A stretch of DNA of 64,000 nt, taken from assembly GCA_977018835.1 (NCBI GenBank), contig OZ361258.1:1240001-1304000 (forward strand), given 5' to 3'. Below, piece by piece: positions 15,981 to 64,000 of the stretch. The stretch is from Minutocellus sp. GHC0000111. Lineage: Eukaryota. The position numbers and the translations under genes are program-made. Position 1 is the stretch's first letter. Each line of letters starts with the position of its first letter. The notes beneath the pieces are model-generated. The model made no database searches and was not told where the DNA came from. It saw nothing but the letters and a program-made list of their open reading frames with translations.

Positions 15981-16633
15981 GGTAACAATAGAATGAGTGA
16001 GTAGTTGACGTGCCTGCCTTTTCAATCTCTGCTGCCCTGATGCTCTGGCTGATGATCACCACTGTCAGTGTCCGTGTTGTGTGCTGAGCGAGCGTCACGT
16101 GAGACCAAGCAGCCGGCAAGGGGGCCGGTGAGGCGAACCGGGAAATTGATCAAAGTTGAACTACGAAAGTCAATGTTCAAGTTGAATTACATGACATGAC
16201 TTTCGGACGGGACCACAAAAATCCCTCTTTCTCTCTTTTCCTCCCGGTGCAATCCCCTCCTCCCCTCTCCCATTCAAAAAGCGTGGAGTAGCCAGCGTGG
16301 AGCGGATCGATGGTGGATACGCGGATCTCCGGCCGCTCCCGCCCCCCGCCGCAGTGCTCTGATTGCTCAAACCAGACTACTACCCTGTATAAATTCTATC
16401 TAATCATAATTGAAACAATGCAGATATTCGTCAAGACGCTAACGGGCAAGACCGTCACCCTCGACGTGAACCCGTCGGACGAAATTAAAGTCGTCAAGGA
16501 TAAGATTAAGAGGGCGCTGTCCATAATTTTCCCCGTTTTTAATCCCCCTTATTCTTATTTCTTATGACGAGCGAAGCATGACAAAAACTCGACCCCACCA
16601 TGAGTATCGCCGCTCTGCCCCCTCTTCATTACG

Positions 16634-17863
16634 ATGAAGCGCAGCGCTGATAATAGTGCCGGCCCGGCCCACAACGCAGATACGCGGTTGCGGAAACTCA
16701 AGACAGATAACTCCGGTCGCCCGATTTTGCCTGTTGACAAGAAGAAAGAGAAGGCGGAGGACAAAGCGAAAGACGCCGTTACCGAGATACTGGAGGGCCT
16801 CGCCGTCACGTTGGAGAACGACCCGAACGGACAAGGACGAGAATTATGGAACAATCCCGGCGTCGGCCATGCACTTCAACATCTTGTCAAAGCAGTCGAG
16901 GCTCGCGCTGATAAGTATCATGTTCGGGATGATATTGATGTCGCTGCTGAGCGGCCCGGCCTCGTAGTTACCAACCTGTCCGTGGCTGATGTGAAGTTGA
17001 GGCTGACGGTCGGCATCGTCGATCAATTGCAAGATCCCATGTTTGACGCCGGACCTGAATTCTTCCCTATATTTCAACTTCATGGGAAACGGATCGATAT
17101 TGGATCGGCTCTTGCTGCGCACGGCCGACCTTTCAACACCACATCGCTTACTTTGCTTGATGGAAGCGGAAAGCTTATCGTCGCTCGTGTTGCCCTGACA
17201 ATTACCGAAAAGGCCCGAAGTCTACAACAGGGCCATGTGATCAAATTGACAAAGTTCCACCGATGGTATGTGGCTCCATATGATGACATACACTCTACTG
17301 CTGGGATTGGACTAGTTGATTTTGATATTGTTGGAATGGGCCAACTTCTGCAGGTAGATGGTGGGCCATCAGCAGCGATCAGATCGGACACGGATGCTCT
17401 TGTTGCGGCCGTTTGTGAGGAAGGCGACGATGATCCGACGGCAGCGCCGGAGGCAGACACATTCGGTAATTGGGACGAGACCAGAGAGAGGCCGCCAATA
17501 CCCCCTGCTTGCTGCACTGCCGCCAACCGAAGCTGCTCAATGTACGGCACACTCTTCTTTCAGAAATGCGTCTGCGAAGAAATGCTGGTGCCGACGGAGG
17601 AGGACCTGGAGGATATCGCTGACAAATACTACGCAACCACCATGCCAGTCGAAGCCATGGCAAATAATTTGAAGAGGAACATGCTGTATTGGTACTATGC
17701 AACTGAGGTGTATCATGTGAGAGGTTGGCTTGATCGGAAGCCCTTGCCAACCTGTCTAGTCTTTTGCATTAGGTTCATTTATCCAAATGATAAAGGTGAA
17801 CGATATGTTGGATTCATCCCTGGTCATCAAGATGAAGAGGAAGAAGAAGAGGAAAATGCATAA
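16634..17863 (+). CDS. Transposon accessory protein: putative OB fold plus KolX/P2X7-C-terminal-like domain
   Basis: Intact 409-aa ORF. C-terminal CC...C...KCVCEE...NNLKRNMLYWYY...RKPLPTCLVFCIRFIYP...YVGF matches the P2X7-ballast/KolX pattern. The N-terminal half has LTVGIV...PIFQL...LTLLDGSG...GHVIKLTKF. Confidence 0.75.
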   Translation: MKRSADNSAGPAHNADTRLRKLKTDNSGRPILPVDKKKEKAEDKAKDAVTEILEGLAVTLENDPNGQGRELWNNPGVGHALQHLVKAVEARADKYHVRDDIDVAAERPGLVVTNLSVADVKLRLTVGIVDQLQDPMFDAGPEFFPIFQLHGKRIDIGSALAAHGRPFNTTSLTLLDGSGKLIVARVALTITEKARSLQQGHVIKLTKFHRWYVAPYDDIHSTAGIGLVDFDIVGMGQLLQVDGGPSAAIRSDTDALVAAVCEEGDDDPTAAPEADTFGNWDETRERPPIPPACCTAANRSCSMYGTLFFQKCVCEEMLVPTEEDLEDIADKYYATTMPVEAMANNLKRNMLYWYYATEVYHVRGWLDRKPLPTCLVFCIRFIYPNDKGERYVGFIPGHQDEEEEEEENA

Positions 17864-17967
17864 TCATTACCTCAACACATGTAGATAACAAGAATGTGCG
17901 TAGCACATGAGTAACAGCACACAATAAATCCATTTTTATTTACAGTGATAAAATATTTTACACGTGT

Positions 17968-20284
17968 TTACAAGCTGCCATTTTCTCTCAGTATCGCCGG
18001 CATCCAAGAGCTAACATCATTTGCCGATACACCGAAGTTTGTCTTAGCTTTCTTATTATTTCTTGCAGATTTCTTGTTGCTGCCTGGGCTTCTGCGCTTC
18101 TTTCCGGCGTAAACGACAACGTCGTCAGCATCGTCGCATTGACATTCAGCCCGAGTGTGGCCAAGCTGCTTGCATTTCTGACACTGCTGGTCAATCTTCT
18201 TCTTGCGGCCAGGCTTTGCTGGTTTCGCCTTACCAGCAGCTAGGGCCCTGTTCTTCTTGTACACATAGTCCTTGTCGTCTTTCTCGCTTCTGTTTCGCAA
18301 GGCTGCTCGAAGGCGCTTGCTGTCGCTCTTGCTCTTTTTGTACTCATCGGTGCGCTTACGCGCAAGGTCGCCCTCGAGCTTCCGGTCAATTGCATCGAAT
18401 CCATCTTTTCGGGTAGGAGAATCCCTCGATCCCAACTTTCCAAGAACTCGCTCATTGAATTCCGTACCCAGTGACTTGTGGCCAGCGGCTCTAATTGTTG
18501 CATTTGGGTAGGCGTCTGAAGCAGTCAAATTCGGCCTTTTCCCCATCGTGAACTTCGTCACCATCCCGTTGAGCTGTTCGACGCCGGTGGTAGATTCCTT
18601 CTTGCAGTTGGAGTCGGCAGTATTCTTGTTGATTCTCTTGGTTATTTCAAGCGTCATCTTGCGAATCGTGTCGTCACTAATCTCCAATATGTCGCCATCG
18701 AATTGATTCCCCGAGCTCCATTCCTCATCGAGCTTGCCATCACTCCAATCAGGATGAGCAATGCTGAGGCGAATCCAATCACACGTGTTGGTGGTGCAAA
18801 AAGTGTGAATGCCACATTGGTGACGAACGATGGACTGGAGTTCTTTCTGAAGGAGGGCCAGATGACTTTGTTTTTCCTCCTCGGACACAGCACCATCGGG
18901 CTGATCGAGAACGCTGTGCTTGTGCCGATCAGTAATCTTCGAAATGTCCTGTTTCATCCGATTGATGCGTGGTCGGGGGATGGCATTAAAATTTTCAACT
19001 CCCAACATTCTCGGCCAGATGCTCCTCTGCCACACCGGGGGAGTAGGAAGAGTTGCGATGGCAGAAGCCATCATGGTCGTACAGGGCCAGTGTCTCATCC
19101 TTGCTCATGTTTTTGAGCTCACTCGGCGTTATTGGATTGCCGGCTTCCCGCCTCTCCCTCAATCTTGCATTGCAGGCTCTCACGCAACAGTGGCAGCTTG
19201 CCTGAGAGATTCCCTTGTCAACAACAAGGCCAGTTTCCTTGTCTACGGCAAATGCCGCTGCAGCAGAGCCAGTGTAGCAATGGCCGTAGTCGCGTTTGAG
19301 GGCGCTGCCGTCTTGGGCCACCGTAACCACCGCCGCCGTGTGCATCTCGCCGCCTTGTTCAAACTCAACAGTCTTGCTGCTAGCGGCACATGCTTTTGCC
19401 CTGTTCTCGTCAATGATTTCATCGGCTGCTTCAATAGCCGCTGCTCTGCATTTCTTTTCCACCTGTCGGGCATTCTTTTCGGTCGGATGGACGATGTCGG
19501 CCTTCGTGCAGAAATTCATGAAGCGACTTGCGCACATGGCCTCATCTTCCGCTGCCTCCATCAGCTCCAAGTTCATTCCAGCCTGACTTCTAGAATGCTT
19601 TCTGCCGGGGCACACAACTTCTGACCTCTGGCCGATCCAAGTGCAAAAAGAAAAAAAAGGTTGGTTGCATCTATCGCATCGCCATTCAAATGTAACGCCG
19701 AATCCACGCCGAACTGGCTCGGCCGAGAGATGCAGATTGCCGCACGATCGGTGGAGATTCTGTGCGAAATCACACAGCTGCTTCATCTCAACCACAATTC
19801 TTTTGCCGTTGAGCTGCACGCCGGTGATGTTGGGACGATCGGTAGCGTTGGCGGTGGGAGTAGATGACCGACCGCCCGAAGAACTCTTGTCGGAACAACA
19901 TTTCAGTGTCGCGTTGAGATGGGGCCCATGCTTTTCATCGTCCTGGAAGTAATTTTCAGGTGTGGTCGGCAGTGATCGCTTGCCATTGCGTTGAGAGCGT
20001 GGGCTGGCGTTATCGGCTATTCTGGAGAAGCGGTAGAAGGGCTTTGCAACGTCAAGGCCTGATATTTTCTCTGGACGTCGTCGTTGGATGTTGACCTCGT
20101 GTCGTGTTGGGACGTGTTGAAGAGATGATCGAACAAGAGAGATCTCTAAGCTCGGCGATGCGCCACCGCGCATCAAGATACGGACAACCTCATCAATAGT
20201 GTAGAAAGTACATCTGACGTCGTCTGGGAATGAGAGCAAGAGTGAGAGGATTGCCTCCTTGGCGTTAGCACGTGATGTTTCCAT
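17968..20284 (-). pseudogene. DDE transposase with an internal deletion/frameshift at ~18995-19003
   Basis: 5' part: C...GFGVTFEWRCDRC, VTVAQDGSALKRDYGH, ETGLVVD...CHCC, HDGFCHRN...AEE. 3' part, in another frame: SIVRHQCGIHTFC, TTGVEQLNGMV...KR and a CQKCKQLGHTRAEC zinc knuckle. Confidence 0.8.
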
Positions 20285-21943
20285 GGTTGTTTTTTTGTTT
20301 TGTGTCGGCTCTGGCGCAAGACACGCTTTTCGATGAGAACCTTGCAAAAAGAACCCCAAATGAGGGAGACGTGCAAAAATACCCCAAACAAATATCCCCT
20401 TACCTCCCAACAGCAAAACTTCAAGATATCTTCCCACCAGCACCACCAATGCTGGTCATGCGTCGGCCGAGACTAATTTCGGTCGATCCGACGATGATGT
20501 GCACGTCGACTGCCATGTTTCTGAGGGAGAGTTGATTCATCGAAGTTCCTCTGAACCAAGTGTTCCTGGAGGGATTTCCGACTTAATGCTGAAAGGAACG
20601 TCGATGACTCTTCGCCACTGTGGAGAGCGGCGGCCTTCGATGAGGAGCCCATTGTCACGTTGGAGTGCTAACTTTGGCGATGGTGCGAAGAAAAAACGGC
20701 ACAAAACACGCATTTTGGGGGCTTCCTAAAAGTTATGGACAGCGCCCTCTTAAGGAACTCGAGGGCATTCCGCCCGATCAGCAGCGAATCATCTTCGCCG
20801 GCAAGCAGATAGAGAACAGGCGGACGCTCTTAGACTACAACATTCAGAAAGAGACCACTCTTCACTTGGTCCTACGCCTGACGGGCATGATATCGACCTT
20901 CTCCTCCTCCGACGCATCCGATCCCTTGGTCGCATATCTACTGCTGACCGATGAGGAGAGGAAATCGGCTTCCATTCCCACGGAGGAACTTCGGGAGAAA
21001 GAAAAGACCGAATATGCAGGATTTTACACCTATCGGTACGACCCCACGTGCGACATACTTCATGAGTCTCATCGAACTTTTCTTTGTGACCTACTCGATT
21101 TCGTTTGGTCGAAGACTGCGTCAAAGGATCCCAATCGTGTCGATATGCGCGTGGCCATGACCAAGGAGCAGCTCCTGTCGGTAAGTGAGCAATGAATGCT
21201 ATAATGAAACGAATGTATTGTGTGATGAATGTATCTTATATGCTCTTGTCTTCTGCCCTTTAGATTGATAATATCTTCATCATGATTTGTGATACTGTCC
21301 ATAATCTTCATTCATCACCAGATCTTGGGTTCATTGGACGGTGAGATGGATGATGCACACAAGGCCAACAAAGTTGTTCGCGGGCTTGAAGCGGCCTTTT
21401 GTAGAGTGCCCGGTGCCCGCGGTGATGCAAAGTATGCCCTGCGCATGACTAAGGCCTCGAACAATTGCATCACCTTTCATTGCGATGGGGGATACGCAAC
21501 CTCGACTTCTCAGATTCCTCTCAATGACCCTTCCGAATATAAGGGTGGGAAGCTTTGTTACTTTGTGAACGATCAGTTGCACTTTGTCCCTCGTACCCCT
21601 GGATCACTTGTTCAGCATCCTCCCAGGGTCCTTCATGGAGTCACCAGAGTCACGGAGGGAACGCGCAAGAGTTTCTTCATCGTCGACACCAACAACGGAC
21701 TTGGCGACAAGGGTGTTGTCGAACTTGAGGCTGATACCATTGTTTCATTCTTGGCTTTTATGAGCGAAAAGAGGGGAAGCAAGCCTTCTGCTGCAAGCAC
21801 CATCAGTGCCGGAGAAAAGCGAAAGCGCGGGGCTGGAAAGTGAAGATTGAGAAAGATTTGGACACACTGTACACTCGTACACTCCCACTTTGATAGACTG
21901 GGGCTCGATAGAACATTGTAGAAAAAAATGATGTAACTCCTAG

Positions 21944-23155
21944 CTAGGATCGCATTATCGCAATAGCATCATCAGTGACACTCATACCATTCATCTCAAA
22001 GTTTGTGTTTGGCATATTCTGCATGGTCTGCCAGGTACACCCATCTTTCTTCGCTTCATCGCCAAGAGGCGGCTTGCCTCGCTGCACCGTACCATCTCCC
22101 CACCATATCGTGCCGTTGCCCCGAGTGCTATCGAATTCAACAAAGGTTCCATGCGAAAAGAATCGTCGCCAAATACCATCGTGACTGCCCTTGGTACCAT
22201 TGCCATTGGGCTGACCCAAAGGACGATCGTATTCCTCCCTCCAGTCGAGCCACACATCCGGCCTTTGAGGCCAAGGTTCGTCAGACGACCAGCCCTTGGC
22301 ACAATGATAGTAGGCATACTCTCCAGCTCCGATGAGGAATGCCGCCATAGCATTGATATCGCCATGGCCACATCCATTCTCGGTTGCGTTGGTCCCATCA
22401 TCCACAATGCCTCCGGCATGTGCCTGAACGCCCAACCCTCGTTCGGCGGCAAGCTGTAGCGATTGGATGCAGTGCTCCGAGGCGGCAAAGTCCTCAAACA
22501 TCATCATGGTGGTCCCTTCCGCCGGCAGACCCTGATTATTAGATATGGCAAACGATCCAATGGACGCCAACCGTCTGTTGAGTTCCGATAGAGTTTGCAT
22601 GTGTGCCAGCTCAAATCGGACGGAATCTTCCTTGGACATGACTTGAACGGCCGATACCTGCGTCATGTTATTGGATCGATCGATGTAGCATCCATCGCAC
22701 CCATCTACCACGGCCTGGAGACAGTCCGATATCCAACGTTCCCGCAGCTCGGGGATGGACAAAATGAAGCACCAGGCCCCGTCTGGTCTGCCCGTGATGG
22801 TAATATCTTTGCCCGACGTATCTTTGAGACGCCACTCGGGATGGTCCAGCATGAGGTCTTGCAACTCATAGAACGGCCAGTCAAATACCGAATTTAGGTA
22901 GTACATGGCAACGACATTTGTTTTGTTGCCGTTGCTTGCAGCGGCGGCGGCAGCCTTGACACGTTGGCACTCTCCTGGCAGGATGTGTTCCTGTCTGCCT
23001 CGACCATTCTTATTCGCATGGGCCTTCTCGAATGTTGCCATCGAATAGCGGCCGATCTCGGCCAGAGCCTCGTGACTCCACACGCCGCTGGAATTGCCGG
23101 AATGGAAGAAGACCGGGAGGGTGCTCCACGAGAAGGGACCGAGGAGGCTGTTCAT
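21944..23155 (-). CDS. Putative glycoside hydrolase (GHL15-like TIM barrel)
   Basis: 403-aa ORF with FSWSTLPVFFH, YYLNSVFD, GCDGCYID, MAAFLIGAGEYAYY, EYDRPLGQP and GIWRRFFSHGTFVEFD. Confidence 0.65.
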   Translation of the reverse strand: MNSLLGPFSWSTLPVFFHSGNSSGVWSHEALAEIGRYSMATFEKAHANKNGRGRQEHILPGECQRVKAAAAAASNGNKTNVVAMYYLNSVFDWPFYELQDLMLDHPEWRLKDTSGKDITITGRPDGAWCFILSIPELRERWISDCLQAVVDGCDGCYIDRSNNMTQVSAVQVMSKEDSVRFELAHMQTLSELNRRLASIGSFAISNNQGLPAEGTTMMMFEDFAASEHCIQSLQLAAERGLGVQAHAGGIVDDGTNATENGCGHGDINAMAAFLIGAGEYAYYHCAKGWSSDEPWPQRPDVWLDWREEYDRPLGQPNGNGTKGSHDGIWRRFFSHGTFVEFDSTRGNGTIWWGDGTVQRGKPPLGDEAKKDGCTWQTMQNMPNTNFEMNGMSVTDDAIAIMRS

Positions 23156-23625
23156 GGCGAGGCTTGGAGTCTTGGAGTGCGGTGTGGTGGACAGAATGAC
23201 TGAATATCTAACTGACGCCTGAGCCGCCGGACTGATGAGCCGTCAGGATAATCTGCAAAGCAGTCAGCAATCTTTACAGGGATCCCGAAAAGTACATGTA
23301 CCTGAAAGGCGACAACAATATTAATTTTTAGCGAGACAACAACAGGAGGAAAAAGCGCCCAGGACCCACCAAACAAACGCGCCATGGCGCGCGGAACGCA
23401 GCAACTTTGGCGAGCCGATGCACTTGGCGAGCGATGCACTTGGCGAGCCTCCGCTGGCGAGGTTCTACTACGTAGTAGCTAGGCCTACATGTATGTACTC
23501 GTTCAGCAGTGCATTCTTCATCACCGCTACTTCCCTGCATAAGTCGCGCCAACTTCTTGCTAGCTACGTAGCTCTACTAGCTAGCTGGCTCACTAACCTC
23601 CGGTTAGCTTCGTACCGTCGTCGTC

Positions 23626-26684: not shown

Positions 26685-27035
26685 CCAGCATTTGGCCATG
26701 CAACTCATAGAACGGCCAGTCAAATACCGAATTCAGATAGTACATGGCAGCAACATTTGTTTCGCTGCGGTTTGCAGCGGCGGCGGCTGCCTTGACACGT
26801 TGGCACTCTCCCGGCAGTATGCGTTTCTGTCTTCCGCGACCATTCTTATTGGCATGGGCCTTCTCGAATGTTGCCATTGAGCGAATATCGACCGATTTCG
26901 GCCAGAGCCTCAGCACTCCACACGCCGCTGGAATTGCCGGAGTGGAAGAAGACCGGGAGGGTGCTCCACGAGAAGAGACCGAGGAGGTTGTTCATGGCGC
27001 GGCGAGAGGGAGGCTTGGAGTGCAAGTGGTGGACT
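26685..27035 (-). pseudogene. Diverged 5' fragment of the glycoside hydrolase gene at ~22850-23180
   Basis: Colinear and clearly similar sequence (MNNLLGLFSWSTLPVFFHSGNSSGVWS...YYLNSVFDWPFYEL) with a frameshift near 26878; truncated. Confidence 0.85.
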
Positions 27036-45787: not shown

Positions 45788-45928
45788 TTCCGAGGTCCAC
45801 GATCGGCTTAGACCGAGAATTACCTGCAATTCGCATCAGTTGCGGATCAAGAAGGGTGTATTCCGAGGTCCGCGATCGGCTTGGACCGAGAATTACCTGC
45901 AATTTGCATCAGTTGTCGATCAAGAAGG
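45788..45928. repeat. Imperfect tandem duplication, period 73 bp
   Basis: TTCCGAGGTCC(A/G)CGATCGGCTT(A/G)GACCGAGAATTACCTGCAATT(C/T)GCATCAGTTG..GATCAAGAAGG occurs at 45788 and 45861. Confidence 0.85.
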
Positions 45929-46785
45929 TCGCACACATGTGACTGTTTCAAGGGAGGCGGCGACGCTTCGGGCGAAGCGTGTTCTTGGTTTTCAAAAATT
46001 TTGTGCGTGGTGAACGTGTACCTAGGTATGGACTGGAAGAGGGCCTTCATGCCAGCAGAGACAGTCCTGACTACGTGGAAGACGACCAGGATTACTTGGA
46101 TTTTCTCACCGATTCTCTCCAGCATGGAGATGGAGAGGGTCGGTCCGATTGCGTCCTTAATTGAAGAAGCGCTTCTGTTGGAGAACGGTAGTGGCATTCG
46201 CAGTCAACACATAAACAGAATTCTGAGATCGGATGATGTTGCATCACTTGTTCAAGACAGCGACGATGAACTTCAAAACGAGGGAATGTTGCTTATTTTT
46301 TTCGGATGCATGATGCACCAGTTCATTAACTTTTTAAAGTTGGATCCAGAATATGCTTCCTTGTGTCAGTGTGGCCACAAGAGTGTCTTCGTCTCGAGAA
46401 TAGGAGATCACAAAACAGCAATAGTGCAAGTGGATCAACTCTTTCGTTTCCGTACACAATGTCGTTCATGAAGGAGTTGTTGGACGCGGCGAGCTCGGTC
46501 GAAGAACCCGACAGGCCTAATCCTGTTGTTGAGTTTGTTACGGACAAATCTCTTTGGGGTGTTTGGAAGGCATGTTGCCGCCATAATCACTCTAAAGGCG
46601 ATGGCCTGTTTGCAACGGTTTTGTCCATGACTTATGATGTGATGTTTCCTGTTTTCATTAAGAGGGCGCTGTCCATAATTTCCCCCGTTTTTAATCCCCC
46701 TTATTCTTATTTCTTATGACCAGCGAAGCATGACAAAAACTCGACCCCACCATGAGAATCGCCGCTCTGCCCCCTCTTCATTACG

Positions 46786-48015
46786 ATGAAGCGCAGCGCT
46801 GATAATAGTGCCGGCCCGGCCCACAACGCAGATACGCGGTTGCGGAAACTCAAGACAGATAACTCCGGTCGCCCGATTTTGCCTGTTGACAAGAAGAAAG
46901 AGAAGGCGGAGGACAAAGCGAAAGACGCCGTTACCGAGATACTGGAGGGCCTCGCCGTCACGTTGGAGAACGACCCGAACGGACAAGGACGAGAATTATG
47001 GAACAATCCCGGCGTCGGCCATGCACTTCAACATCTTGTCAAAGCAGTCGAGGCTCGCGCTGATAAGTATCATGTTCGGGATGATATTGATGTCGCTGCT
47101 GAGCGGCCCGGCCTCGTAGTTACCAACCTGTCCGTGGCTGATGTGAAGTTGAGGCTGACGGTCGGCATCGTCGATCAATTGCAAGATCCCATGTTTGACG
47201 CCGGACCTGAATTCTTCCCTATATTTCAACTTCATGGGAAACGGATCGATATTGGATCGGCTCTTGCTGCGCACGGCCGACCTTTCAACACCACATCGCT
47301 TACTTTGCTTGATGGAAGCGGAAAGCTTATCGTCGCTCGTGTTGCCCTGACAATTACCGAAAAGGCCCGAAGTCTACAACAGGGCCATGTGATCAAATTG
47401 ACAAAGTTCCACCGATGGCATGTGGCTCCATATGATGACATACACTCTACTGCTGGGATTGGACTAGTTGATTTTGATATTGTTGGAATGGGCCAACTTC
47501 TGCAGGTAGATGGTGGGCCATCAGCAGCGATCAGATCGGACACGGATGCTCTTGTTGCGGCCGTTTGTGAGGAAGGCGACGATGATCCGACGGCAGCGCC
47601 GGAGGCAGACACATTCGGTAATTGGGACGAGACCAGAGAGAGGCCGCCAATACCCCCTGCTTGCTGCACTGCCGCCAACCGAAGCTGCTCAATGTACGGC
47701 ACACTCTTCTTTCAGAAATGCGTCTGCGAAGAAATGCTGGTGCCGACGGAGGAGGACCTGGAGGATATCGCTGACAAATACTACGCAACCACCATGCCAG
47801 TCGAAGCCATGGCAAATAATTTGAAGAGGAACATGCTGTATTGGTACTATGCAACTGAGGTGTATCATGTGAGAGGTTGGCTTGATCGGAAGCCCTTGCC
47901 AACCTGTCTAGTCTTTTGCATTAGGTTCATTTATCCAAATGATAAAGGTGAACGATATGTTGGATTCATCCCTGGTCATCAAGATGAAGAGGAAGAAGAA
48001 GAGGAAAATGCATAA
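46786..48015 (+). CDS. Transposon accessory protein (OB fold plus KolX-like), copy 2
   Basis: 409 aa, with one residue difference from copy 1 (RWYV vs RWHV). Confidence 0.75.
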   Translation: MKRSADNSAGPAHNADTRLRKLKTDNSGRPILPVDKKKEKAEDKAKDAVTEILEGLAVTLENDPNGQGRELWNNPGVGHALQHLVKAVEARADKYHVRDDIDVAAERPGLVVTNLSVADVKLRLTVGIVDQLQDPMFDAGPEFFPIFQLHGKRIDIGSALAAHGRPFNTTSLTLLDGSGKLIVARVALTITEKARSLQQGHVIKLTKFHRWHVAPYDDIHSTAGIGLVDFDIVGMGQLLQVDGGPSAAIRSDTDALVAAVCEEGDDDPTAAPEADTFGNWDETRERPPIPPACCTAANRSCSMYGTLFFQKCVCEEMLVPTEEDLEDIADKYYATTMPVEAMANNLKRNMLYWYYATEVYHVRGWLDRKPLPTCLVFCIRFIYPNDKGERYVGFIPGHQDEEEEEEENA

Positions 48016-48119
48016 TCATTACCTCAACACATGTAGATAACAAGAATGTGCGTAGCACATGAGTAACAGCACACAATAAATCCATTTTTATTTACAGTGA
48101 TAAAATATTTTACACGTGT

Positions 48120-50433
48120 TTACAAGCTGCCATTTTCTCTCAGTATCGCCGGCATCCAAGAGCTAACATCATTTGCCGATACACCGAAGTTTGTCTTAGC
48201 TTTCTTATTATTTCTTGCAGATTTCTTGTTGCTGCCTGGGCTTCTGCGCTTCTTTCCGGCGTAAACGACAACGTCGTCAGCATCGTCGCATTGACATTCA
48301 GCCCGAGTGTGGCCAAGCTGCTTGCATTTCTGACACTGCTGGTCAATCTTCTTCTTGCGGCCAGGCTTTGCTGGTTTCGCCTTACCAGCAGCTAGGGCCC
48401 TGTTCTTCTTGTGCACATAGTCCTTGTCGTCTTTCTCGCTTCTGTTTCGCAAGGCTGCTCGAAGGCGCTTGCTGTCGCTCTTGCTCTTTTTGTACTCATC
48501 GGTGCGCTTACGCGCAAGGTCGCCCTCGAGCTTCCGGTCAATTGCATTGAATCCATCTTTTCGGGTAGGAGAATCCCTCGATCCCAACTTTCCAAGAACT
48601 CGCTCATTGAATTCCGTACCCAGTGACTTGTGGCCAGCGGCTCTACTTGTTGCATTTGGGTAGGCGTCTGAAGCAGTCAAATTCGGCCTTTTCCCCATCG
48701 TGAACTTCGTCACCATCCCGTTGAGCTGTTCGACGCCGGTGGTAGATTCCTTCTTGCAGTTGGAGTCGGCAGTATTCTTGTTGATTCTCTTGGTTATTTC
48801 AAGCGTCATCTTGCGAATCGTGTCGTCACTAATCTCCAATATGTCGCCATCGAATTGATTCCCCGAGCTCCATTCCTCATCGAGCTTGCCATCACTCCAA
48901 TCAGGATGAGCAATGCTGAGGCGAATCCAATCACACGTGTTGGTGGTGCAAAAAGTGTGAATGCCACATTGGTGACGAACGATGGACTGGAGTTCTTTCT
49001 GAAGGAGGGCCAGATGACTTTGTTTTTCCTCCTCGGACACAGCACCATCGGGCTGATCGAGAACGCTGTGCTTGTGCCGATCAGTAATCTTCGAAATGTC
49101 CTGTTTCATCCGATTGATGCGTGGTCGGGGGATGGCATTAAAATTTTCAACTCCCAACATTCTCGGCCAGATGCTCCTCTGCCACACCGGGGGAGTAGGA
49201 AGAGTTGCGATGGCAGAAGCCATCATGGTCGTACAGGGCCAGTGTCTCATCCTTGCTCATGTTTTTGAGCTCACTCGGCGTTATTGGATTGCCGGCTTCC
49301 CGCCTCTCCCTCAATCTTGCATTGCAGGCTCTCACGCAACAGTGGCAGCTTGCCTGAGAGATTCCCTTGTCAACAACAAGGCCAGTTTCCTTGTCTACGG
49401 CAAATGCCGCTGCAGCAGAGCCAGTGTAGCAATGGCCGTAGTCGCGTTTGAGGGCGCTGCCGTCTTGGGCCACCGTAACCACCGCCGCCGTGTGCATCTC
49501 GCCGCCTTGTTCAAACTCAACAGTCTTGCTGCTAGCGGCACATGCTTTTGCCCTGTTCTCGTCAATGATTTCATCGGCTGCTTCAATAGCCGCTGCTCTG
49601 CATTTCTTTTCCACCTGTCGGGCATTCTTTTCGGTCGGATGGACGATGTCGGCCTTCGTGCAGAAATTCATGAAGCGACTTGCGCACATGGCCTCATCTT
49701 CCGCTGCCTCCATCAGCTCCAAGTTCATTCCAGCCTGACTTCTAGAATGCTTTCTGCCGGGGCACACAACTTCTGACCTCTGGCCGATCCAAGTGCAAAA
49801 GGAAAAAGGTTGGTTGCATCTGTCGCATCGCCATTCAAATGTAACGCCGAATCCACGCCGAACTGGCTCGGCCGAGAGATGCAGATTGCCGCACGATCGG
49901 TGGAGATTCTGTACGAAATCATGCAGCTGCTTCATCTCAACCACAACTCTTTTGCCGTTGAGCTGCACGCCGGTGATGTTGGGACGATCGGCAGCGTTGG
50001 CGGTGGGAGTAGATGACCGACCGCCCGAAGAGTTCTTGTCGGAATAACATTTCAGTGTCGCGTTGAGATGGGGCCCATGCTTTTCATCGTCCTGGAAGTG
50101 ATTTTCAGGCATGGTCGGCAGTGATCGCTTGCCATTGCGTTGAGAGCGTGGGCTGGCGTTGTCGGCTGTTCTGGAGAAGCGGTAGAAGGGCTTTGCAACG
50201 TCAAGGCCTGACATTTTCTCTGGACGTCGTCGTTGGATGTTGACCTCGTGTCGTGTTGGGACGTGTTGAAGAGATGATCGAACAAGAGAGATCTCTAAGC
50301 TCGGCGACACGCCACCGCGCATCAAGATGCGGACAAGCTCATCAATAGTGCAGTAAGTGCATCTGACGTCGTCTGGGAATGAGAGCAAGAGTGAGAGGAT
50401 TGCCTCCTTGGCGTTAGCACGTGATGTTTCCAT
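48120..50433 (-). pseudogene. DDE transposase, copy 2, with the same deletion/frameshift at ~49147-49155
   Basis: The junction AENVGS*/GVENFNAIP is identical to copy 1. Confidence 0.8.
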
Positions 50434-50902
50434 GGTTGTTTTTTTGTTTTGTGTCGGCTCTGGCGCAAGATGCGCTTTTCGATGAGAACCTTACAAAAAG
50501 AACCCCAAATGAGGGAGACGTGCAAAAATACCCCAAACAAATATCCCCTTACCTCCCAACAGCAAAACTTCAAGATATCTTCCCACCAGCACCACCAACG
50601 CTGGTTGTGCGTCGGCCGAGACTAATTTCGGTCGATCCGACGATGACGTGCACGTCGACTGTTATGTTTCTGAGGGAGAGTTGATTCATCGAAGTTCCTC
50701 TGAACCAAGTGTTCCTGGAGGGATTTCCGACTTAATGCTGAAAGGAACGTCGATGACTCTTCGCCACTGTGGAGAGCGGCGGCCTTCGATGAGGAGCCCA
50801 TTGTCACGTTGGAGTGCTAACTTTGGCGATGGTGCGAAGAAAAAACGGCACAAAACACGCATTTTGGGGGCTTCCTAAAAGTTATGGACAGCGCCCTCTT
50901 AA

Positions 50903-52851: not shown

Positions 52852-55800
52852 CTACTTCCAACCCTGGCACACGCTATTCTTACCAAACAGCTCCTGGTTT
52901 TCTTTCGGATTCAAAATCAGTGCCTCCGAAAAAAATTTGCCCATAATGCGCCACATGCCATCAATGCCGAAAGAAAGAACAAGAGCTCCACAAATTGCCT
53001 TCATGGAAAATGCTAGATCTTCCGTTAGATCCTTGTCTAGCTTCTTGAGATGCCCGACGAGCAGGCCACCACCAAGCCCAGGATATCGAGGATGAAGATC
53101 ATCATCCGACACGTTGTTATGGCTCCCACTTTTCATCCGACGTCGGTATTCATCCATACCGAACAACCAGCCGTCGCTTTCTTCCCATATTTCCGTGCCC
53201 TTTTTATCAGCAAGCTTCATTTCAAGCCAAAATTGAGCAACAGACGGAGCATCCTTATCAAAAAGACACTGCGTAAAGTCGTTCTTTGTCAGTATATACG
53301 CCATTGCTTCATCTGTAAATGCGCAAAACGTGAGAAGAGTGAGATCCTTTGGAGAGGCGTCGGGGAAGCGTTTGTAGAGCTCAATGGAAAGGCAGAGGTT
53401 TAGGGCATAGTTTCCGATGAAAAATAGATTGTCTCGGCAAATACCAACCAAATTCAAACCTTCGAGTGGACTTGCACTTGTCGTCCAATCCTGCCGTGCC
53501 GCCATTGGCATCACCGGTCAAGGACGCATCGAAAAGGGCGCAACGAAGCAAAATCTTTGTGCGCTGAGAGGAGAGCTGGGAACAACGAGAACCTTGACTG
53601 TCTAGGATTTTGCAAAGCAATGCAAATCCCCGCTCCAGCTTCATATCTACGTTTCGATCCATAGTGAGTGCCGTCCCAACGGCAATAATTTGCTTGTTCC
53701 AGCTCTGGTGTAAATCAAATGGATACGGACCAATAAAGCAAGGACTCGAAGCGACAAATCCTTTTGTAGCATTTTCCCCACTCAGCGCGGAGAAAGATAA
53801 TTCCAGCTCGTTGAATTGACCAAGAACATTACTCCCAGCCGGATTTCTAATGAAGGCTACTGCAATCAAAGCCTCAACCACATCGCTTAGGGTTCCTTGG
53901 CTACATTCGCGCGACGTACTCCCGCCGACACCGAGGATCTTTGGAATGCCCACTCGAAGTGCGGCTTGCCCCAACTGCTTGTTATTCATCTCGATGGATA
54001 TTTTGTCACCAAGGTCATCGGCATCCAAGCGCAAATCATAATTCTTGGCAAACAGATTGATAGCAAGAGCATGGTTCAGAATGGCATCACCCAGAAACTC
54101 CAGCCGTTGATACGTTGGGCTGGGAAACAAGCCCGTCGCTTTATCGATGAGGACGAGAGGGGCATCTCCTTCATCCAGATTATTGAAGAGGTGGGAAGAG
54201 AACACAGTACCAGTGTGATCGGTAGTCTCAGTGATAGCAAGGCCATTCTTTGTCTTGAGCTCTTGTAATCGGCGATCGACATTCATAAGGGTCACGGTCC
54301 TTTCCAGCGATACCAAGATTGCTTCGAAATGCTGCCCACACAGGTACAACATGTCTCTTGGACATGGTAAAACGTGAAGCAATTCCGGTGGTAAATGAAT
54401 TGTACCACCCGCACCATCGGTAGGTTTGCTAGTACAGGTACTCTCCTGCGAACGGAGTAGATCCATCTTCGCGTGCTTCTTCACAAGCTTTGCAGGAATC
54501 AACGAATGTTTTGCATATCTCAGCTTAGTTGAATACCTCTCTGAATAAAATTCGTAACACGATGTTGGATATGAGCTTTCTTTGCCATCCTCTCTAACAT
54601 CAAAGGTAGCCAGGGCGTTTCGCCTTGAAGCAGAAAGCCAAACATTTGTATCGAGAACAAAAAGTCCAGACATCCCAACGCTTTGAGTTAGAAATCGATT
54701 CGCCAGAACTTCATCGTCAACAGTCTTCTTCGGCGGGGGGATCGAAAAGAAGAACAATGCCAGACAAACGCATGCAAGCCAAGGGTATAATGCGGGGGCA
54801 CTGTCTGCGATGAACAGTTTTGTCCAGTCAAAATCAAAAACATTTTTTATAACTGCTGGCTCTTCCATTCTGAGCCACTGATAACATGCGAAGGCAACAC
54901 TAGATAGGCCAACGATGAACCTAACGTGTTGGCTTTGAACGCGGCCTCCAACGAGCCCTTTGGGCAAGTAGTATGGCTCAATGTTGTATTCAACCACTCG
55001 AGTCATAAGATCCCAATCAATGAGAATTCCACCGCTGCCGTCCTCCTCCTTTAGCGGTACAAACATGCAAGAGCTGTCGCCTTTGCTGCGATTATCATCT
55101 TGGAACTTCATTGGCCCTTTGAGCTTTACCGACCCCCTTGATTTAGAGTATCCAACAAAGCCATATCGTTTCCAATCCTTGACGATGGTATTAAAATGCC
55201 GCATCTTGCGAAGAGCATCGTTATTGCCTCCCAGACTGATCACAGTCCTTCTCCGTAAAGCCAAATTTACCTTTTCATTTCCACTTCGAGTTGGGATTTC
55301 AATGATTGTGTTGACGGCATCGTTGCCGCCCTTGTTACCATGAAAGAAGTCCTGGCCAAGTACCAAAGCCATCCTAGAACAAACTCGAGGAGATAGACTC
55401 ATTGCCGATGATACAAAATCTTCGCCTGATTCATTCGTACTAGTAAACACCATTTCGTATACCACAAGGTGATGAGCATTTTCATCAATTGAAACAGTAA
55501 AACATGGTGGCGGGGAAAAATGAAATGTGGCCGTCTTGTCAGGAGCGGATCGCAACAGGCCCTCCTTGATTTCCCAATTTATATCAGTTTCTGACAGAAC
55601 CTGCACATTCAGTCTCCGTGCCTCTTCTTCCACAAGGAGAGACATACTCTTCAAGGCCTCCGCTCTTGACACACTGGGTAGCGACAATGTAGTAAATCTG
55701 AATGGGCTAGACAATTCAACAACCGCGCAAAGCTCTGTACGACATTCTCGGTCGATATATTTAATGCCGGGTCCTTCCGGTTGGGTTGGCAAATATTCCC

Positions 55801-56914
55801 GAAATTTGATGTTGATTGATGATGCTGTCACCCCCAACCGCGAAAGACGATTCACCCATTCCGGATAGTGAGACCGGGGAGCATATCCAACGCGTTTGGT
55901 CGGTTCCGCTGGTGCAGTCGGCTCTGTAGCAGGAATGGTAATATTGTTGTATTTTGTCGGTGCAAATGAAGCAATGGCCTGGGCGGTGGTTTCACTTTCA
56001 TTTTCGTCGCCCACCAACAGGGCACGGGAAGCACCACTGGACGAGATTGACCAAAGTACCTCGGCGTTTGAGCTGAACATGACCTGGCCGATGCTTATCC
56101 CTCTTGACTGATCGCTGGTACCATTGCTATTTCTGCTCTTGGCCAACAAATTGGCTTCATACGCTGCTATTGCTGCAGCCTTTCTCGCGCCCTTCTTGCT
56201 CTTGAAATACACAAGGCCGTCACCAAATATTTTGCTCTCCCCAAGCTTGGTCAGAATGATTTTCCAATCTGCATGAGTAAATGTATCATCGTCACCCTAG
56301 GTATCGTCAGCGTCGGACATACAAGCATGTGTAAGCCAAACCGACCAGGGCAGTCCCGATGGATATTCCCGATCCAGCACGGGACAGTGCAGTACCGACC
56401 TCCACCAGCCCGTGATGATCCCCCTCTCGTTACGATGTTGGATGTCCCGGTAGGTCGGTTGCTTTGGTTTGCCGTTGTTCGAATTGTTCTCGCCCTTGTT
56501 TTTACCCCTGCCCTTGTCGAGGGATTGGTAGTATTCCAATAATGCGGACGTTGGGTCGGACGTCCCGATGGCGGTGACGAGGGTCCGTTCGGCTTCCCTC
56601 ATCAATGCCTCGTGCTGCTGCTGTTCCAACACCTCACTTCTCGAGCATGCACATATGGAATCATCTATGGACTGCAGGCTTGCCAGATCGTCGCTTGTAT
56701 CGATGCTGCTGCTGATCGAATGAATGCTTGCACAATCATCGTTGCCGATGCCGACATCATTGTCATTGTCGTCATCATTGTCCGCAATCGCTGTCGGGGG
56801 TGGAACGCGGGAACCCAACAGCACGACGGCGTCACCGGTACATGTACCACTCACGCTCACTCCGCCGGCGGCACGGCGTCGCTTGGACATCAGGGTGGGA
56901 CTGGATCCGATCAT
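52852..56914 (-). pseudogene. Helicase-less Dicer-like gene (dsRBD-like, PAZ-like, two RNase III); in-frame TAG at 56297-56299 and frameshift at ~53478
   Basis: DPTSALLEYYQ...YFKSKKGARKAAA (dsRBD-like); YEFYSERY...LPPELL (PAZ-like); YQRLEFLGDAIL...LSDVVEALI (RIIIa); RDNLFFIGNYAL (degenerate RIIIb). Confidence 0.8.
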
Positions 56915-57512: not shown

Positions 57513-60500
57513 ATGAGCATGACCGCCGAGGAGGAGGACCAGCCAGGTCCCATCAGCAGCACCGCCTGCGTCGGCCGCGACCACAATACTAGGCCTAGTG
57601 ATGCCACCGCCGCCGACGAGGCCTTGTACCCCCTCGACGAATCGCCGGAAAAGGTCGCGCCCAGCGTGGCGTTCGCCGCCACCGAGGCCGAGGTGCTGTG
57701 CACCCCCGAGGACGGCAAAAAGTCCACCTCGAACCATCGGTCGTACAATGCGTTGACGAATCCCGTCGGGGATACCATCGGTTCGGCCTTGAATAGTGGT
57801 GGTGCTGCCGCCGCCGGCGGTGATGGTGGTAATAACAACAAGGCTGCCGGTAGCGCTGGCGGTAGCGGTAACGGGGGTCCGTCCAAGGCCAAGCAGCAGG
57901 CCGCTCCGCCTTCGGCTGCAGCTGCACCGGAAATTGCCGCGTCGGCTCCGAGCACAGCCCCGGCATCGTCGCCTTCCGCCACCCCCAGCAAAGCGACCGC
58001 CGCAGCGGCGGCCACTCCCGAATCGTCCCCGCAGGCCAGCCGCCGCCTCTTCCAGGCCATGCAGGCCGGGACCGCCCTCCCCCCTTCGACCGACACCAGC
58101 CTCGCGTCCGACGACTTGGACGACAGCCTCAACAACGTTAGCAACATCAGCGGTAGCAACATGAATAACATGAACAGCAACATGAACGACGTTTCCTCTG
58201 GCACGCCTCCTCCTGCCGCTGCCGGTAGATCTGCTGCTGCCAATGCCAACGCCAACGATGCCAACGACACCACGCCCGTGTCGGCCGCCGCGGCGGCAGC
58301 GGCCGCGGCGGCCCAGATCCGCAGGGACGTCGAGGGTGCAGGACAGGACAAGGGCGAGGTTTTACTGGACACCAGCAGAGAAAGAAACCGGAAGGACGTG
58401 GTGGCCATGGCCCTGAACCGCCGCCGCCATCAGCAGCCTCTTGAGGAGGGGGGTGCCGATGATGCCGAAGATGATGCCGAAGCCGGCGTACCTGCTTCAG
58501 CTTCCACCACCCCTCCCAAGCATCCCGCCGGTACCGCCACGACCACCGTCACCAGCAGCAGCGTGCACCATCCCGCCGATGAGAGTCCCGCCAAGGCCCT
58601 GTTCCGGGGGGGCAAGCCCTTCCAGAGCTCCAGTGGTGGTGGGCACCACCGATCCACCCCACCCAGCAGCAGCAGCCGTAGCCGCAAGGTCAGCCCCGCC
58701 AAGATGCACTTTGCCTCCACGGCCATCCCCAGCCCTGCCGTTGGTGGTGGTGGTGGTGACGGTGGCAATGCCGAGGAGAACAGTGTCGTGGGAGGCAGCA
58801 ATGTTGGTGGTGCCAACCTCGACGCCTCGATATTGGCCGACCAATCCTTCATGTCGCAGGGTGCCAACACCTTCGTTGAAGAGGACGATGATGCCGACGA
58901 CGACAATGACGACATTGTGGATAACCGCACGGACGTGTCAGCCGAGGTCGACGCCCTCGACCTGGCGGGGATCAGCCCCATCTTCGTCCGGGCGTTCGGC
59001 TCGTGCGGTGCCGGCGCCGGCGCTGGCGGTGTCAGCAGCCGGTGGAAGAAGCGGCAGCAGCAAAAAGCCAAGATGAGGGACGGCAGTACCAGTGATGTCG
59101 CTGCCGCTGCAGCCAATGCCGGCACCGGCGACGACGAGGCCAAGAACAATACCATTGCCAACCTACGGGAGGAGATCGACTGCCTCAAGGCCAAGGTCAA
59201 GGCGCGAGACGTCGGAATCGTCAAGCTGAACGGGGAGCTTTCGGAGGCCACGGCCGACCTCAAGCACGTCCGGCTGATGCTGCAGAAGGAGCAGCGCCGG
59301 AATGCCGCGTTCGGCGGTGCCGGCGAGATGTCGTACTCGTACTCGGCCACCACGGCCACCAGCGCCGATGGCGATGGTGCGGAGCCGACGGCTGCAACCG
59401 TCGCCGCCGCTCCCACAGCTGCCGATGTTGCTTCGTACAAGCGCCAGATTGAAAAGCAGCAGGAGGAGATCCGCAACCGCGACGTCCGGTTGAATTGGAT
59501 GACGAAAAAGATGGAAAGTTTGGAGGTGGAGCGTTGTTCCCTCGTGGAACAGTTGGCCGAGGAGACCAAGGCGGCACCCGCAACTGTTTCGCCTACCGTT
59601 GCCGGTGGCGGTAATAACACTGCCAGTGGCAACGAGAAGAAAGACGTGCTCGACCATTCAGAATCGTCTCAGCCCGGACGGATTGGCAAGGCGGACGACA
59701 CCGTCGCCCTTCGACTCAAGCTCCACGAGAGCGACAGCACCATTGCTGCCCTCAAGGCCGAGATCAATACCATGCGATCGCCCGAGCTATATGCAAGGTC
59801 CCAGGCCGCAGAAGTGGAGCGACTGGTGCAAAAGGCAAAGAGAGATGCGGCAACGATCGCCGCACTCAAGAGTGAAAACACTCGGCTCGTCATGAAGGTC
59901 GCCAATGGCGGAGATATGCGCCAAGAAGAAACTGACAAGGCAAAGGAGGGTGAAGATCCGAACCAATCGCTGGATGAAATTCTCGGTGAAGTCTCTCGAT
60001 GCGTCGACCCTGCTGCTATTCATGGTGACGGTCCGGAGGATGAATTCTTTGGTGACTCATTGGTGGAAGATCCGACCATCCGATCAATGTCCGCACCGCC
60101 AACGGATAAAGTGAAGATCAAATCGTTGGAGAAGAAGCTCCGTGAGGCCAAGGAGCTTGAACTTTCAATGAAGAATCGTCTAGATGTGCTTTCCGCGGCT
60201 CTCAGTGGAGAGACATCGAAAGTAGCAGCTGAGAACCTCATTGCTGAGCAAAAGGAGGCATCAAACGATGAGCAGAAGGCATTGATTGCCCGTATGGAGA
60301 AAGATATTGACGACAGGGACAAGTCCCTCGAAGTGCTCCGATCAATTATTGACAGTCAAAAGAAGGAGATCAAGACACAATGGAAGAACGCCGAACGATG
60401 GAAGGAGGAAGAACTAGTTCTCGAGGAGGAGAATAAAGAACTCAAGCGAACACTGAGAAAGGCAGCAAAGGTTGTGAAGAAGGTTGAAATTGACAACCTC

Positions 60501-63800: not shown

Positions 63801-64000
63801 CCACCCTTTTTGCCTTTTCCACTCTTGCCACTTTGTTGTTGTTGTTGCTGCTGCTGCTGCAGACGTTCCTGCTCCTCCGCCTCGACCATGCGTGCCCTCC
63901 AGGCCTCCATCTCGGATTTGGCCCATTCGCACGCCGCCAAACCGTCCATGGACAGCAGTCCCTGCCCCCCACCACCGGCAGTACCGGTATCCTCCCCACC
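60898..64000 (-). CDS. NEMF: NEMF/Rqc2 ribosome quality-control factor, 5'-truncated by the window; 1-bp frameshift at ~63320
   Basis: FGPSLIEHC, AVDEFF, WFEKFNYMITSDNYLVVGGKDAQQNEQLVKRY, HADVHGA, QVSKTAPTGEYLTVGSFMIRGKKNFLP and PVCAPY...YKYRVKLTPG. Confidence 0.92.

Follow-up and report, generated by a model that had tools for sequence, protein, structure and literature searches.

Introduction

To our knowledge, mutational genome defences act on cytosine. An adenine-side process has so far been presented in a single preprint on a rhizarian, whose main text gives no clue to target choice. In Bigelowiella natans, integrated DNA of nucleocytoplasmic large DNA viruses (NCLDVs) and of virophages undergoes de novo hypermutation at TpA, across viral regions of 25-186 kb in which all hypermutable changes are reported to lie at TpA; an ADAT-like deaminase was proposed as the enzyme (Mettrop et al., 10.64898/2026.01.13.699255). 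In the diatom Phaeodactylum tricornutum, small RNAs of 25-30 nt lie on methylated transposons with a period of 180-200 nt, for which the authors suggest inter-nucleosomal access (PMC4247016). N6-methyladenine (6mA) of the AMT1 type is confined to ApT and found in linkers downstream of the transcription start, and P. tricornutum is reported with 5-methylcytosine (5mC) only (bioRxiv 10.1101/2024.10.28.620566). Here we have examined a 64,000-nt stretch of gene-dense eukaryotic DNA (the window) from the diatom Minutocellus sp. GHC0000111 (assembly GCA_977018835.1, contig OZ361258.1, positions 1,240,001 to 1,304,000), which carries two copies, A and B, of a Kolobok-like DNA transposon. Our reading, to which we assign a probability of roughly 0.6, is that TA steps of this transposon family, above all 5′-TAY-3′ (Y, pyrimidine), are changed to TG or CA by host DNA editing over a 1.6-kb domain, likely by an adenine deaminase acting in accessible windows at nucleosome spacing.

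Results

The two direct copies of the 4.24-kb element, their genes and the segment in which they diverge are as follows (coordinates of the window):

16510-20749: copy A of the Kolobok-like transposon, with TTAA duplications at 16506-16509 and 20750-20753, 17-bp terminal inverted repeats and ends GA..TC
46662-50898: copy B, in the same orientation and 30 kb from copy A, with TTAA duplications at 46658-46661 and 50899-50902
18995-20284, minus strand: transposase 5′ part (PF20700), at 49147-50433 in copy B
17968-19002, minus strand: transposase 3′ part, lightly mutated
16634-17863, plus strand: open reading frame 2 (ORF2), 409 aa, likely a KolX-type accessory protein, at 46786-48015 in copy B
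19649-20514: A/B divergent segment, with its counterpart at 49801-50663, holding 32 substitutions and a 3-bp indel at ~19651

Global alignment of copy A with copy B gave 39 substitutions, 32 of them within positions 19641-20520 (880 bp) and 7 in the other 3.36 kb (Fisher p=3e-16). The original prediction, made by a manual count, had put about 7 differences in the first ~3.1 kb against about 30 and a 3-bp indel in about 0.9 kb. The formal alignment, which it named as a possible refutation, confirmed both the numbers and the unevenness of the divergence, and its dinucleotide classes were exact (TA vs CA or TG 13 times, CA vs TG five times, CG vs TG twice), while the share of about three quarters that it gave to transitions at pyrimidine-purine (YpR) sites corresponds to 25 of the 32 segment substitutions. 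Transitions numbered 30 in the segment and 4 outside, whereas transversions (2 in the segment, 3 outside) were compatible with an even spread (p=0.28). The excess divergence of the segment thus consists of transitions only, and 23 of the 30 lie at TpA. Both the CA and the TG allele were present in contigs of runs X1, X4, X5 and X6 at 19773/4, 19899/900 and 20502/3, and in contigs of runs X1, X4 and X10 at 20159/60; these five runs belong to four coded studies. Because both alleles recur in contigs of several runs, the hypermutation is no assembly artefact at the level of the family. Family alleles were taken from assembled contigs, which drop rare variants, so that most alleles private to A or B are unseen there.

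The direction of change was then deduced from the YpR steps of the segment, among which A and B share 11 TA and 65 CG. A model with a TA ancestor and independent mutation of each copy fits the 11/13/5 counts (rate 0.46, p=0.22), and a CG ancestor, with 0.3 double differences expected and 5 seen, was rejected (p=1.6e-8). A family-majority letter from the contigs of other runs was available for 15 of the 30 segment transitions, the rest being without a deciding row, and all 15 run A:T→G:C, 6 in copy A and 9 in copy B:

19764, 19884, 20344, 20457, 20513, 20514: polarised sites mutated in copy A
19798, 19843, 20012, 20019, 20202, 20210, 20450, 20458, 20498: polarised sites mutated in copy B (A coordinates)

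Both CG-vs-TG sites reflect a CG newly acquired by copy B and not CpG decay. Outgroup protein P0001, 88% identical, keeps Tyr where the copies carry His or Cys. The CG ratio is 1.14, that is, not depleted, and the TA ratio of the segment is 0.32-0.38 against 0.58 in the rest of the window; C→T at CpG occurred at 4 of 1442 chances in family copies. A stop-codon test of the polarity of repeat-induced point mutation (RIP) covered 9 of 101 sites and had little power. The polarity is TpA→TpG/CpA. What had been proposed from the sequence, a mutational process that is aimed at repeats and concentrates on the transposase 5′ end, is supported, and of the chemistries offered with it, TpA→CpA/TpG has the right polarity. 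Methylation-driven CpG deamination is contradicted by the 65 shared CG steps and the failure of the CG-ancestor model, and RIP-like CpA→TpA by the family majority, which carries A or T at every polarisable transition. Recombination with a single hypermutated copy was not the cause either, because nearly all copies are mutated.

Copies of the family were analysed both as proteins and as contig allele tables. We scored amino-acid changes against an inferred ancestor in 19 transposase 5′ parts (A and B included), 8 transposase 3′ parts and 15 ORF2 proteins, after removal of frameshifted tails with a local identity filter; run X20 (share 0.39), represented by only 3 low-depth contigs, was left out of the frequencies. 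Results showed A→G at TAY in 208/617 chances for the transposase 5′ half (residues 1-427), 8/135 for the 3′ part and 1/571 for ORF2 (14 copies; the fifteenth, P0028, was scored separately), which corresponds to a standing variation per TAY strand of 34% vs 0.18%. Counted by site, mutation affected 41/44 TAY of the transposase 5′ part, against 5/20 of its 3′ part and 1/41 of ORF2. The rates in the 19 copies depended on context: TAT 104/265 (39%), TAC 104/352 (30%), TAA 8/97 (8%), AAT 11/360 (3%), TAG 4/163 (2.5%) and CAT 4/402 (1%), with 1 hit in the other A contexts, 0/1115 mutated for AAA, AAC and AAG together and none for GAT. In total, TA steps received 220 hits and the remaining A contexts 16, and transversions at TA were found once in 1519 chances. 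The process therefore produces pure transitions in the context order TAT/TAC > TAA > TAG and AAT and leaves CpG alone. The spectrum also led us to reject ApT-specific 6mA as the direct target, TAC and TAT being mutated at similar rates and GAT never.

When rates were computed per 250-bp bin, they stayed below 1% in ORF2 and at 0-6% in 17850-18849 and rose to 20-45% in 18850-20349, delimiting the following domain:

~18900-20520: family-wide TpA→TpG/CpA hypermutation domain, from ~230 bp upstream to ~1.4 kb downstream of the transposase ATG

It is twice as long as the segment of the original prediction, and since almost no TAY targets lie in 20521-20749, its limit on the side of the element end is provisional. 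ORF2 was spared in 14 of the 15 full-length copies, one of these 14 carrying a single hit. The fifteenth, P0028, is mutated from end to end (24/41 TAY) and has 1 of 11 Tyr left. The same shape was seen in sister element P0037, where Tyr losses extend up to residue 571 and 6/6 Tyr are kept beyond 600.

How the hits arise was examined in the allele combinations. At the hottest RTAY sites (R, purine) almost no TA remains in contigs and CA and TG stand near 50:50. Codons 126/129, at a distance of 9 bp, show all four allele combinations, which led to the rejection of a two-founder model with one all-TG and one all-CA haplotype. Moreover, 15 of 15 haplotypes were distinct, and neighbouring hits fell on the same strand 52 times out of 101, against 50.7 expected. 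Since alleles are balanced, all combinations occur, haplotypes are distinct and strands are not coordinated, these data point to events at the DNA level that struck many copies repeatedly and independently, on either strand. Strand-coordinated tracts, as left by one processive pass or by RNA editing with reverse transcription, were not seen in the sampled copies. Four rearranged copies bear on how the target is set. In P0046, P0047, P0048 and P0050, truncated or internally deleted, the ORF2 5′ part is joined to antisense transposase (~19355, 17996, 19506) or to unknown sequence, and this part carries seven TA hits in P0046, three in P0048, one clear hit in P0047 and none in P0050. Because three of these four copies are mutated in ORF2, vs two among the 15 full-length ones, the comparison suggests that the target is set by position within the element or by read-through, not by sequence alone.

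Sites with an identical hexamer differed tenfold in mutability, and we therefore scanned for a period. The fitted mutability peaks lie ~188 bp apart:

20491, 20303, 20115, 19927, 19739, 19551, 19363, 19175: fitted mutability peaks

On raw rates the best period was 184-188 bp (p=0.004; p=0.01 for site clusters, scan 40-600), and with site class included it gave p=0.005-0.009. A fit at 188 bp to 46 sites with class and a quadratic or cubic trend, in which 13 DNA-level values were added or substituted, reached p<=0.001. Mutation of RTAY sites was 0.90 near peaks vs 0.30 in troughs and that of one-strand sites 0.42 vs 0.16, and the phase trained on RTAY sites predicted the one-strand sites (p=0.007-0.02). 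Upstream, RTAY sites alternate in contigs, 20502 and 20322 being hot and 20427, 20393 and 20380 cold. Two held-out sets agreed: in P0037 the 6 mutated Tyr, three of which lie in its collinear N-terminal part, are 5-38 bp from a peak vs a median of 66 for 13 unmutated ones (one-sided p=0.006), and for three Tyr losses that are fixed in the family the distances to a peak are 15, 2 and 1 bp (p ~0.004). Among 18 outgroup tyrosines, 15 of them already in the fit, loss followed peak distance with rho=-0.88. A 10.45-bp period gave p=0.036, uncorrected. Neither CG nor AA/TT content clearly follows the 188-bp phase, so the peaks are assignable to neither linkers nor cores. A spacing of 188 bp is on the scale of the nucleosome repeat. 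We consider it likely that the period is real; a ~188-bp period whose phase is anchored to the gene start is supported but not proven.

The 3′ edge of the A/B segment lies inside the family-wide domain and borders a homogeneous tract:

18495-19648: tract without A/B difference though rich in derived alleles, likely A/B gene conversion

Over residues 1-212 A and B differ 14 times, within the range of 4-15 found for the 36 pairs among 9 full-coverage copies, whereas over residues 216-427 they differ 0 times and the other 35 pairs 3-13 times (expected 7.1, p=1e-4). They are sisters inside the segment too, because they share a rare non-TA allele at 20309 where at least 93% of the family has the other letter (X1, X4, X5). 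The likeliest account is that sister copies were mutated separately and that a later conversion homogenised ~1.15 kb, this homogenisation probably setting the visible 3′ edge of the segment. Possible, though doubtful, is that the edge at 19650 is true history, the A/B ancestor having been mutated in 18900-19650 before duplication and the daughters only in 19650-20514. In its favour, the internal deletion is common to A and B, as are rare alleles at 17424, 17907, 18831, 19424 and 20309, but the ancestor would have had to take cold sites (19060, 19254) and yet miss the hottest of the family, and differences of the ordinary kind are missing from 18495-19648 as well (0 where 4.1 are expected, p=0.017).

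The Kolobok superfamily is defined by TTAA duplication, RR..YY ends and a DDD/E transposase with DxxH, and its Kolobok0 lineage has a KolX accessory gene with relatives matching the P2X7 C-terminal domain (PMC9587614). TTAA target-site duplication and RR..YY termini are both present in our element, PF20700 matches the minus-strand transposase (E=3e-20), and by inspection the full-length P0017 has a DDD/E transposase with a C/DxxH motif (QDGS, DGDS, DFNH). ORF2 itself had no Pfam match and no useful Atlas or PDB sequence match. Among its relatives, 17 of the 48 scanned (48 of 150 listed) matched the P2X7 C-terminal domain, PF20478, at E<=0.05, with one above the cut-off. The element, which carries the marks defined for the superfamily, is thus likely a Kolobok with a KolX-type gene. 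Like Kolobok0 it combines TTAA duplication, RR..YY ends, a DDD/E transposase and a likely accessory gene; unlike Kolobok0, copies A and B lack part of the catalytic core, since a ~72-codon deletion at ~19002 frameshifts their transposase with loss of the DGDS and DxxH region. Of the 19 sampled transposases, 7 carry this deletion (428-430 aa forms), and these vary from one another to the same extent as other copies; editing would therefore have continued after the deletion.

Single element contigs are ~60 times as deep as the unique flank, the family shows next to no variation in ORF2 or in the transposase 3′ part, and the empty site of copy A is joined across in contigs of 4/4 runs. From the depth, the near-monomorphy and the empty site we concluded that the family is large and young, and the empty allele in all four runs implies that the copy A insertion is polymorphic. 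The left junction of copy B was found in contigs of run X6, and a protein identical to the copy B transposase is recorded on a second contig (P0008). Protein clusters held 170 distinct transposase and 71 distinct ORF2 sequences. Scans of Joint Genome Institute (JGI) metagenomes confirmed 0 of 44 pattern matches for the protein query and gave 0 for the terminal-repeat pattern. P0037, P0038 and P0040 form a sister family; relatives from short contigs retain their tyrosines, and P0037 is a mosaic with its first 110 residues like the A/B family and the remainder like the sister family.

In the host DNA around the copies, one gene is interrupted by the transposon:

16419-21195, plus strand: ubiquitin-like host gene split by copy A at TTAA

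Copy A lies in frame position within it, and the split region extends over 16419-21843; the downstream part has no Pfam match and presumably resembles a 2-oxoglutarate-Fe(II) oxygenase. For one host gene, Bacillariophyta is the commonest taxon in the best Atlas cluster, which agrees, as does the gene style, with a diatom source. TA ratios of host DNA are mostly 0.4-0.75. A host paralogue pair, 87% identical (22846-23192 and 26685-27034), has an ordinary mixed substitution spectrum and keeps 6 of 7 TA, and a 68-bp near-tandem duplicate at 45788-45928 has 5 differences, one of them TA vs TG. A Dicer-like gene with PAZ and RNase III domains (53381-56212, minus strand), 2.5 kb from copy B, has a normal TA content. 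Low TA ratios (0.27-0.33) at 58001-60000 and 63001-64000 fall in GC-rich low-complexity coding DNA and are probably compositional.

Discussion

As we picture the process, both strands of the 1.6-kb domain at the transposase end have had TA steps converted to TG or CA, likely copy by copy. A host adenine deaminase would edit TAY in the exposed windows of a nucleosome array at the promoter end of the transposase, and the deaminated A, now inosine, would be fixed as G at replication. The domain may represent a marked chromatin array, perhaps guided by small RNAs, and copies, once inserted, would be mutated in successive rounds. The edge between A and B at 19650 would stem from a later conversion tract. 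The TAY context resembles the target of TadA. More tentatively, diatoms might possess a DNA adenine editor that is guided by chromatin, works as the mirror image of RIP and edits TAY in phased-nucleosome linkers at the promoter end of newly inserted transposase genes, probably in register with 180-nt periodic small RNAs.

Several observations weigh against the adenine-editing reading. The sample comprised 19 of ~174 transposases and 15 of 71 ORF2 sequences, is biased to mutated, stop-free copies and may include allelic pairs. At the hottest sites no TA-bearing, unmutated donor was present among 15 copies. The difference at 17267, outside the segment, runs the opposite way, and we took it as an ordinary C→T change. 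The absence of CpA→TpA changes (0/1451) is partly circular, the ancestral state having been set by us. TA is palindromic, so a modified A and a modified T are indistinguishable. With the same targeting, a thymine in 5′-RTA-3′ could be modified, mispair with G and give T→C, which is the same base-pair change as A→G at TAY and fits all counts equally well. TET/JBP-type dioxygenases are candidate enzymes for thymine oxidation. No result here points to such an enzyme and the Bigelowiella authors favour an ADAT-like deaminase, so that we regard modified thymine, the main rival on the chemical side, as rather improbable. Error-prone repair synthesis near an active promoter by an enzyme of the polymerase eta type, as in somatic hypermutation, would account for a domain of 1-2 kb at a gene 5′ end, and TA is a hotspot of this polymerase; however, polymerase eta mutates WA (W, A or T) broadly and with transversions, and the spectrum, with its untouched AAA, AAC and AAG and its single TA transversion, largely refutes this very improbable source. 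Cytosine decay, either as RIP-like CpA→TpA by a RID-like DNMT4 or as 5mC deamination at CpG, has in its favour that diatoms encode a RID-related DNMT4 and methylate CG in transposons (PMC9998398). It is hardly credible, being refuted by the uniform A:T→G:C direction of the polarised transitions, the shared CG steps with undepleted CG, and the depletion of TA.

An unlikely alternative accepts the TpA process without any chromatin period, the differences among sites coming from context, a smooth gradient and shared ancestry. Protein-level sites alone lose significance once a quadratic trend is removed (p=0.33-0.72), training on one-strand sites fails to predict RTAY sites (p=0.19), and the 13 DNA-level values are rough contig-table readings added post hoc, after the first phase fit. 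RTAY class is partly confounded with phase, 19091 is hot in a trough, 19764 and 20344 are cool near a peak, and the deleted copy P0046 is mutated in ORF2 at places off phase. Against the aperiodic account stand the agreement of both held-out tests, the persistence of the signal with a cubic trend and the alternation of hot and cold upstream RTAY sites.

Should the chromatin-guided editor be real, the mutations would be a heritable nucleosome map of a silenced element. In this young, half-mutated family targeting is finer than 'repeat' or 'foreign DNA', with one gene riddled, its neighbour intact and hits probably spaced as nucleosomes are. This yields predictions for micrococcal nuclease (MNase), small-RNA and base-modification maps, and the TAY motif can serve in screening candidate enzymes. 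For genome engineers, too, an adenine editor of DNA that occurs naturally would be of interest. In addition, treating Tyr→His/Cys changes as ordinary divergence will give wrong ages and consensus sequences for diatom transposons.

Among known systems, no diatom report of TpA→TpG/CpA hypermutation was found in the literature covered, which leaves out subscription journals, and a 2025 diatom transposon preprint makes no mention of TpA, hypermutation or RIP. The main text of the Bigelowiella preprint holds nothing on nucleosomes, periodicity, diatoms, sequence context or trinucleotides, although its supplements may hold flanking context. Our element resembles that case in its A:T→G:C transitions at TpA on both strands of foreign or mobile DNA. 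In the rhizarian, however, viral regions are concerned and the main text gives a rate measured de novo (~1000-fold above background), whereas here we deal with a diatom transposon and standing variation. The differences extend to the confinement to a 1.6-kb part of a 4.2-kb multicopy transposon, the preference for a pyrimidine at +1 and the ~188-bp period, and the restriction to TpA is less strict here, with weak AAT and CAT hits. The small RNAs of Phaeodactylum have a similar period on diatom transposons, but what their authors describe, in the part of the paper available to us, is an RNA distribution without mutation. AMT1-type 6mA is likewise a periodic, 5′-focused adenine mark, but one limited to ApT. 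Like the RIP of ascomycetes, the process is directed at repeats and degrades transposons through transitions at specific dinucleotides of both strands; RIP, however, proceeds by C→T at CpA and raises TpA, which is consumed here, and it mutates the whole duplicated sequence. ORF2 is repeated to the same degree and yet spared, so repetition by itself does not trigger the process. Taken together, we describe a variant of a process that has appeared in print once; the restriction to one part of the element and the probable 188-bp footprint are new.

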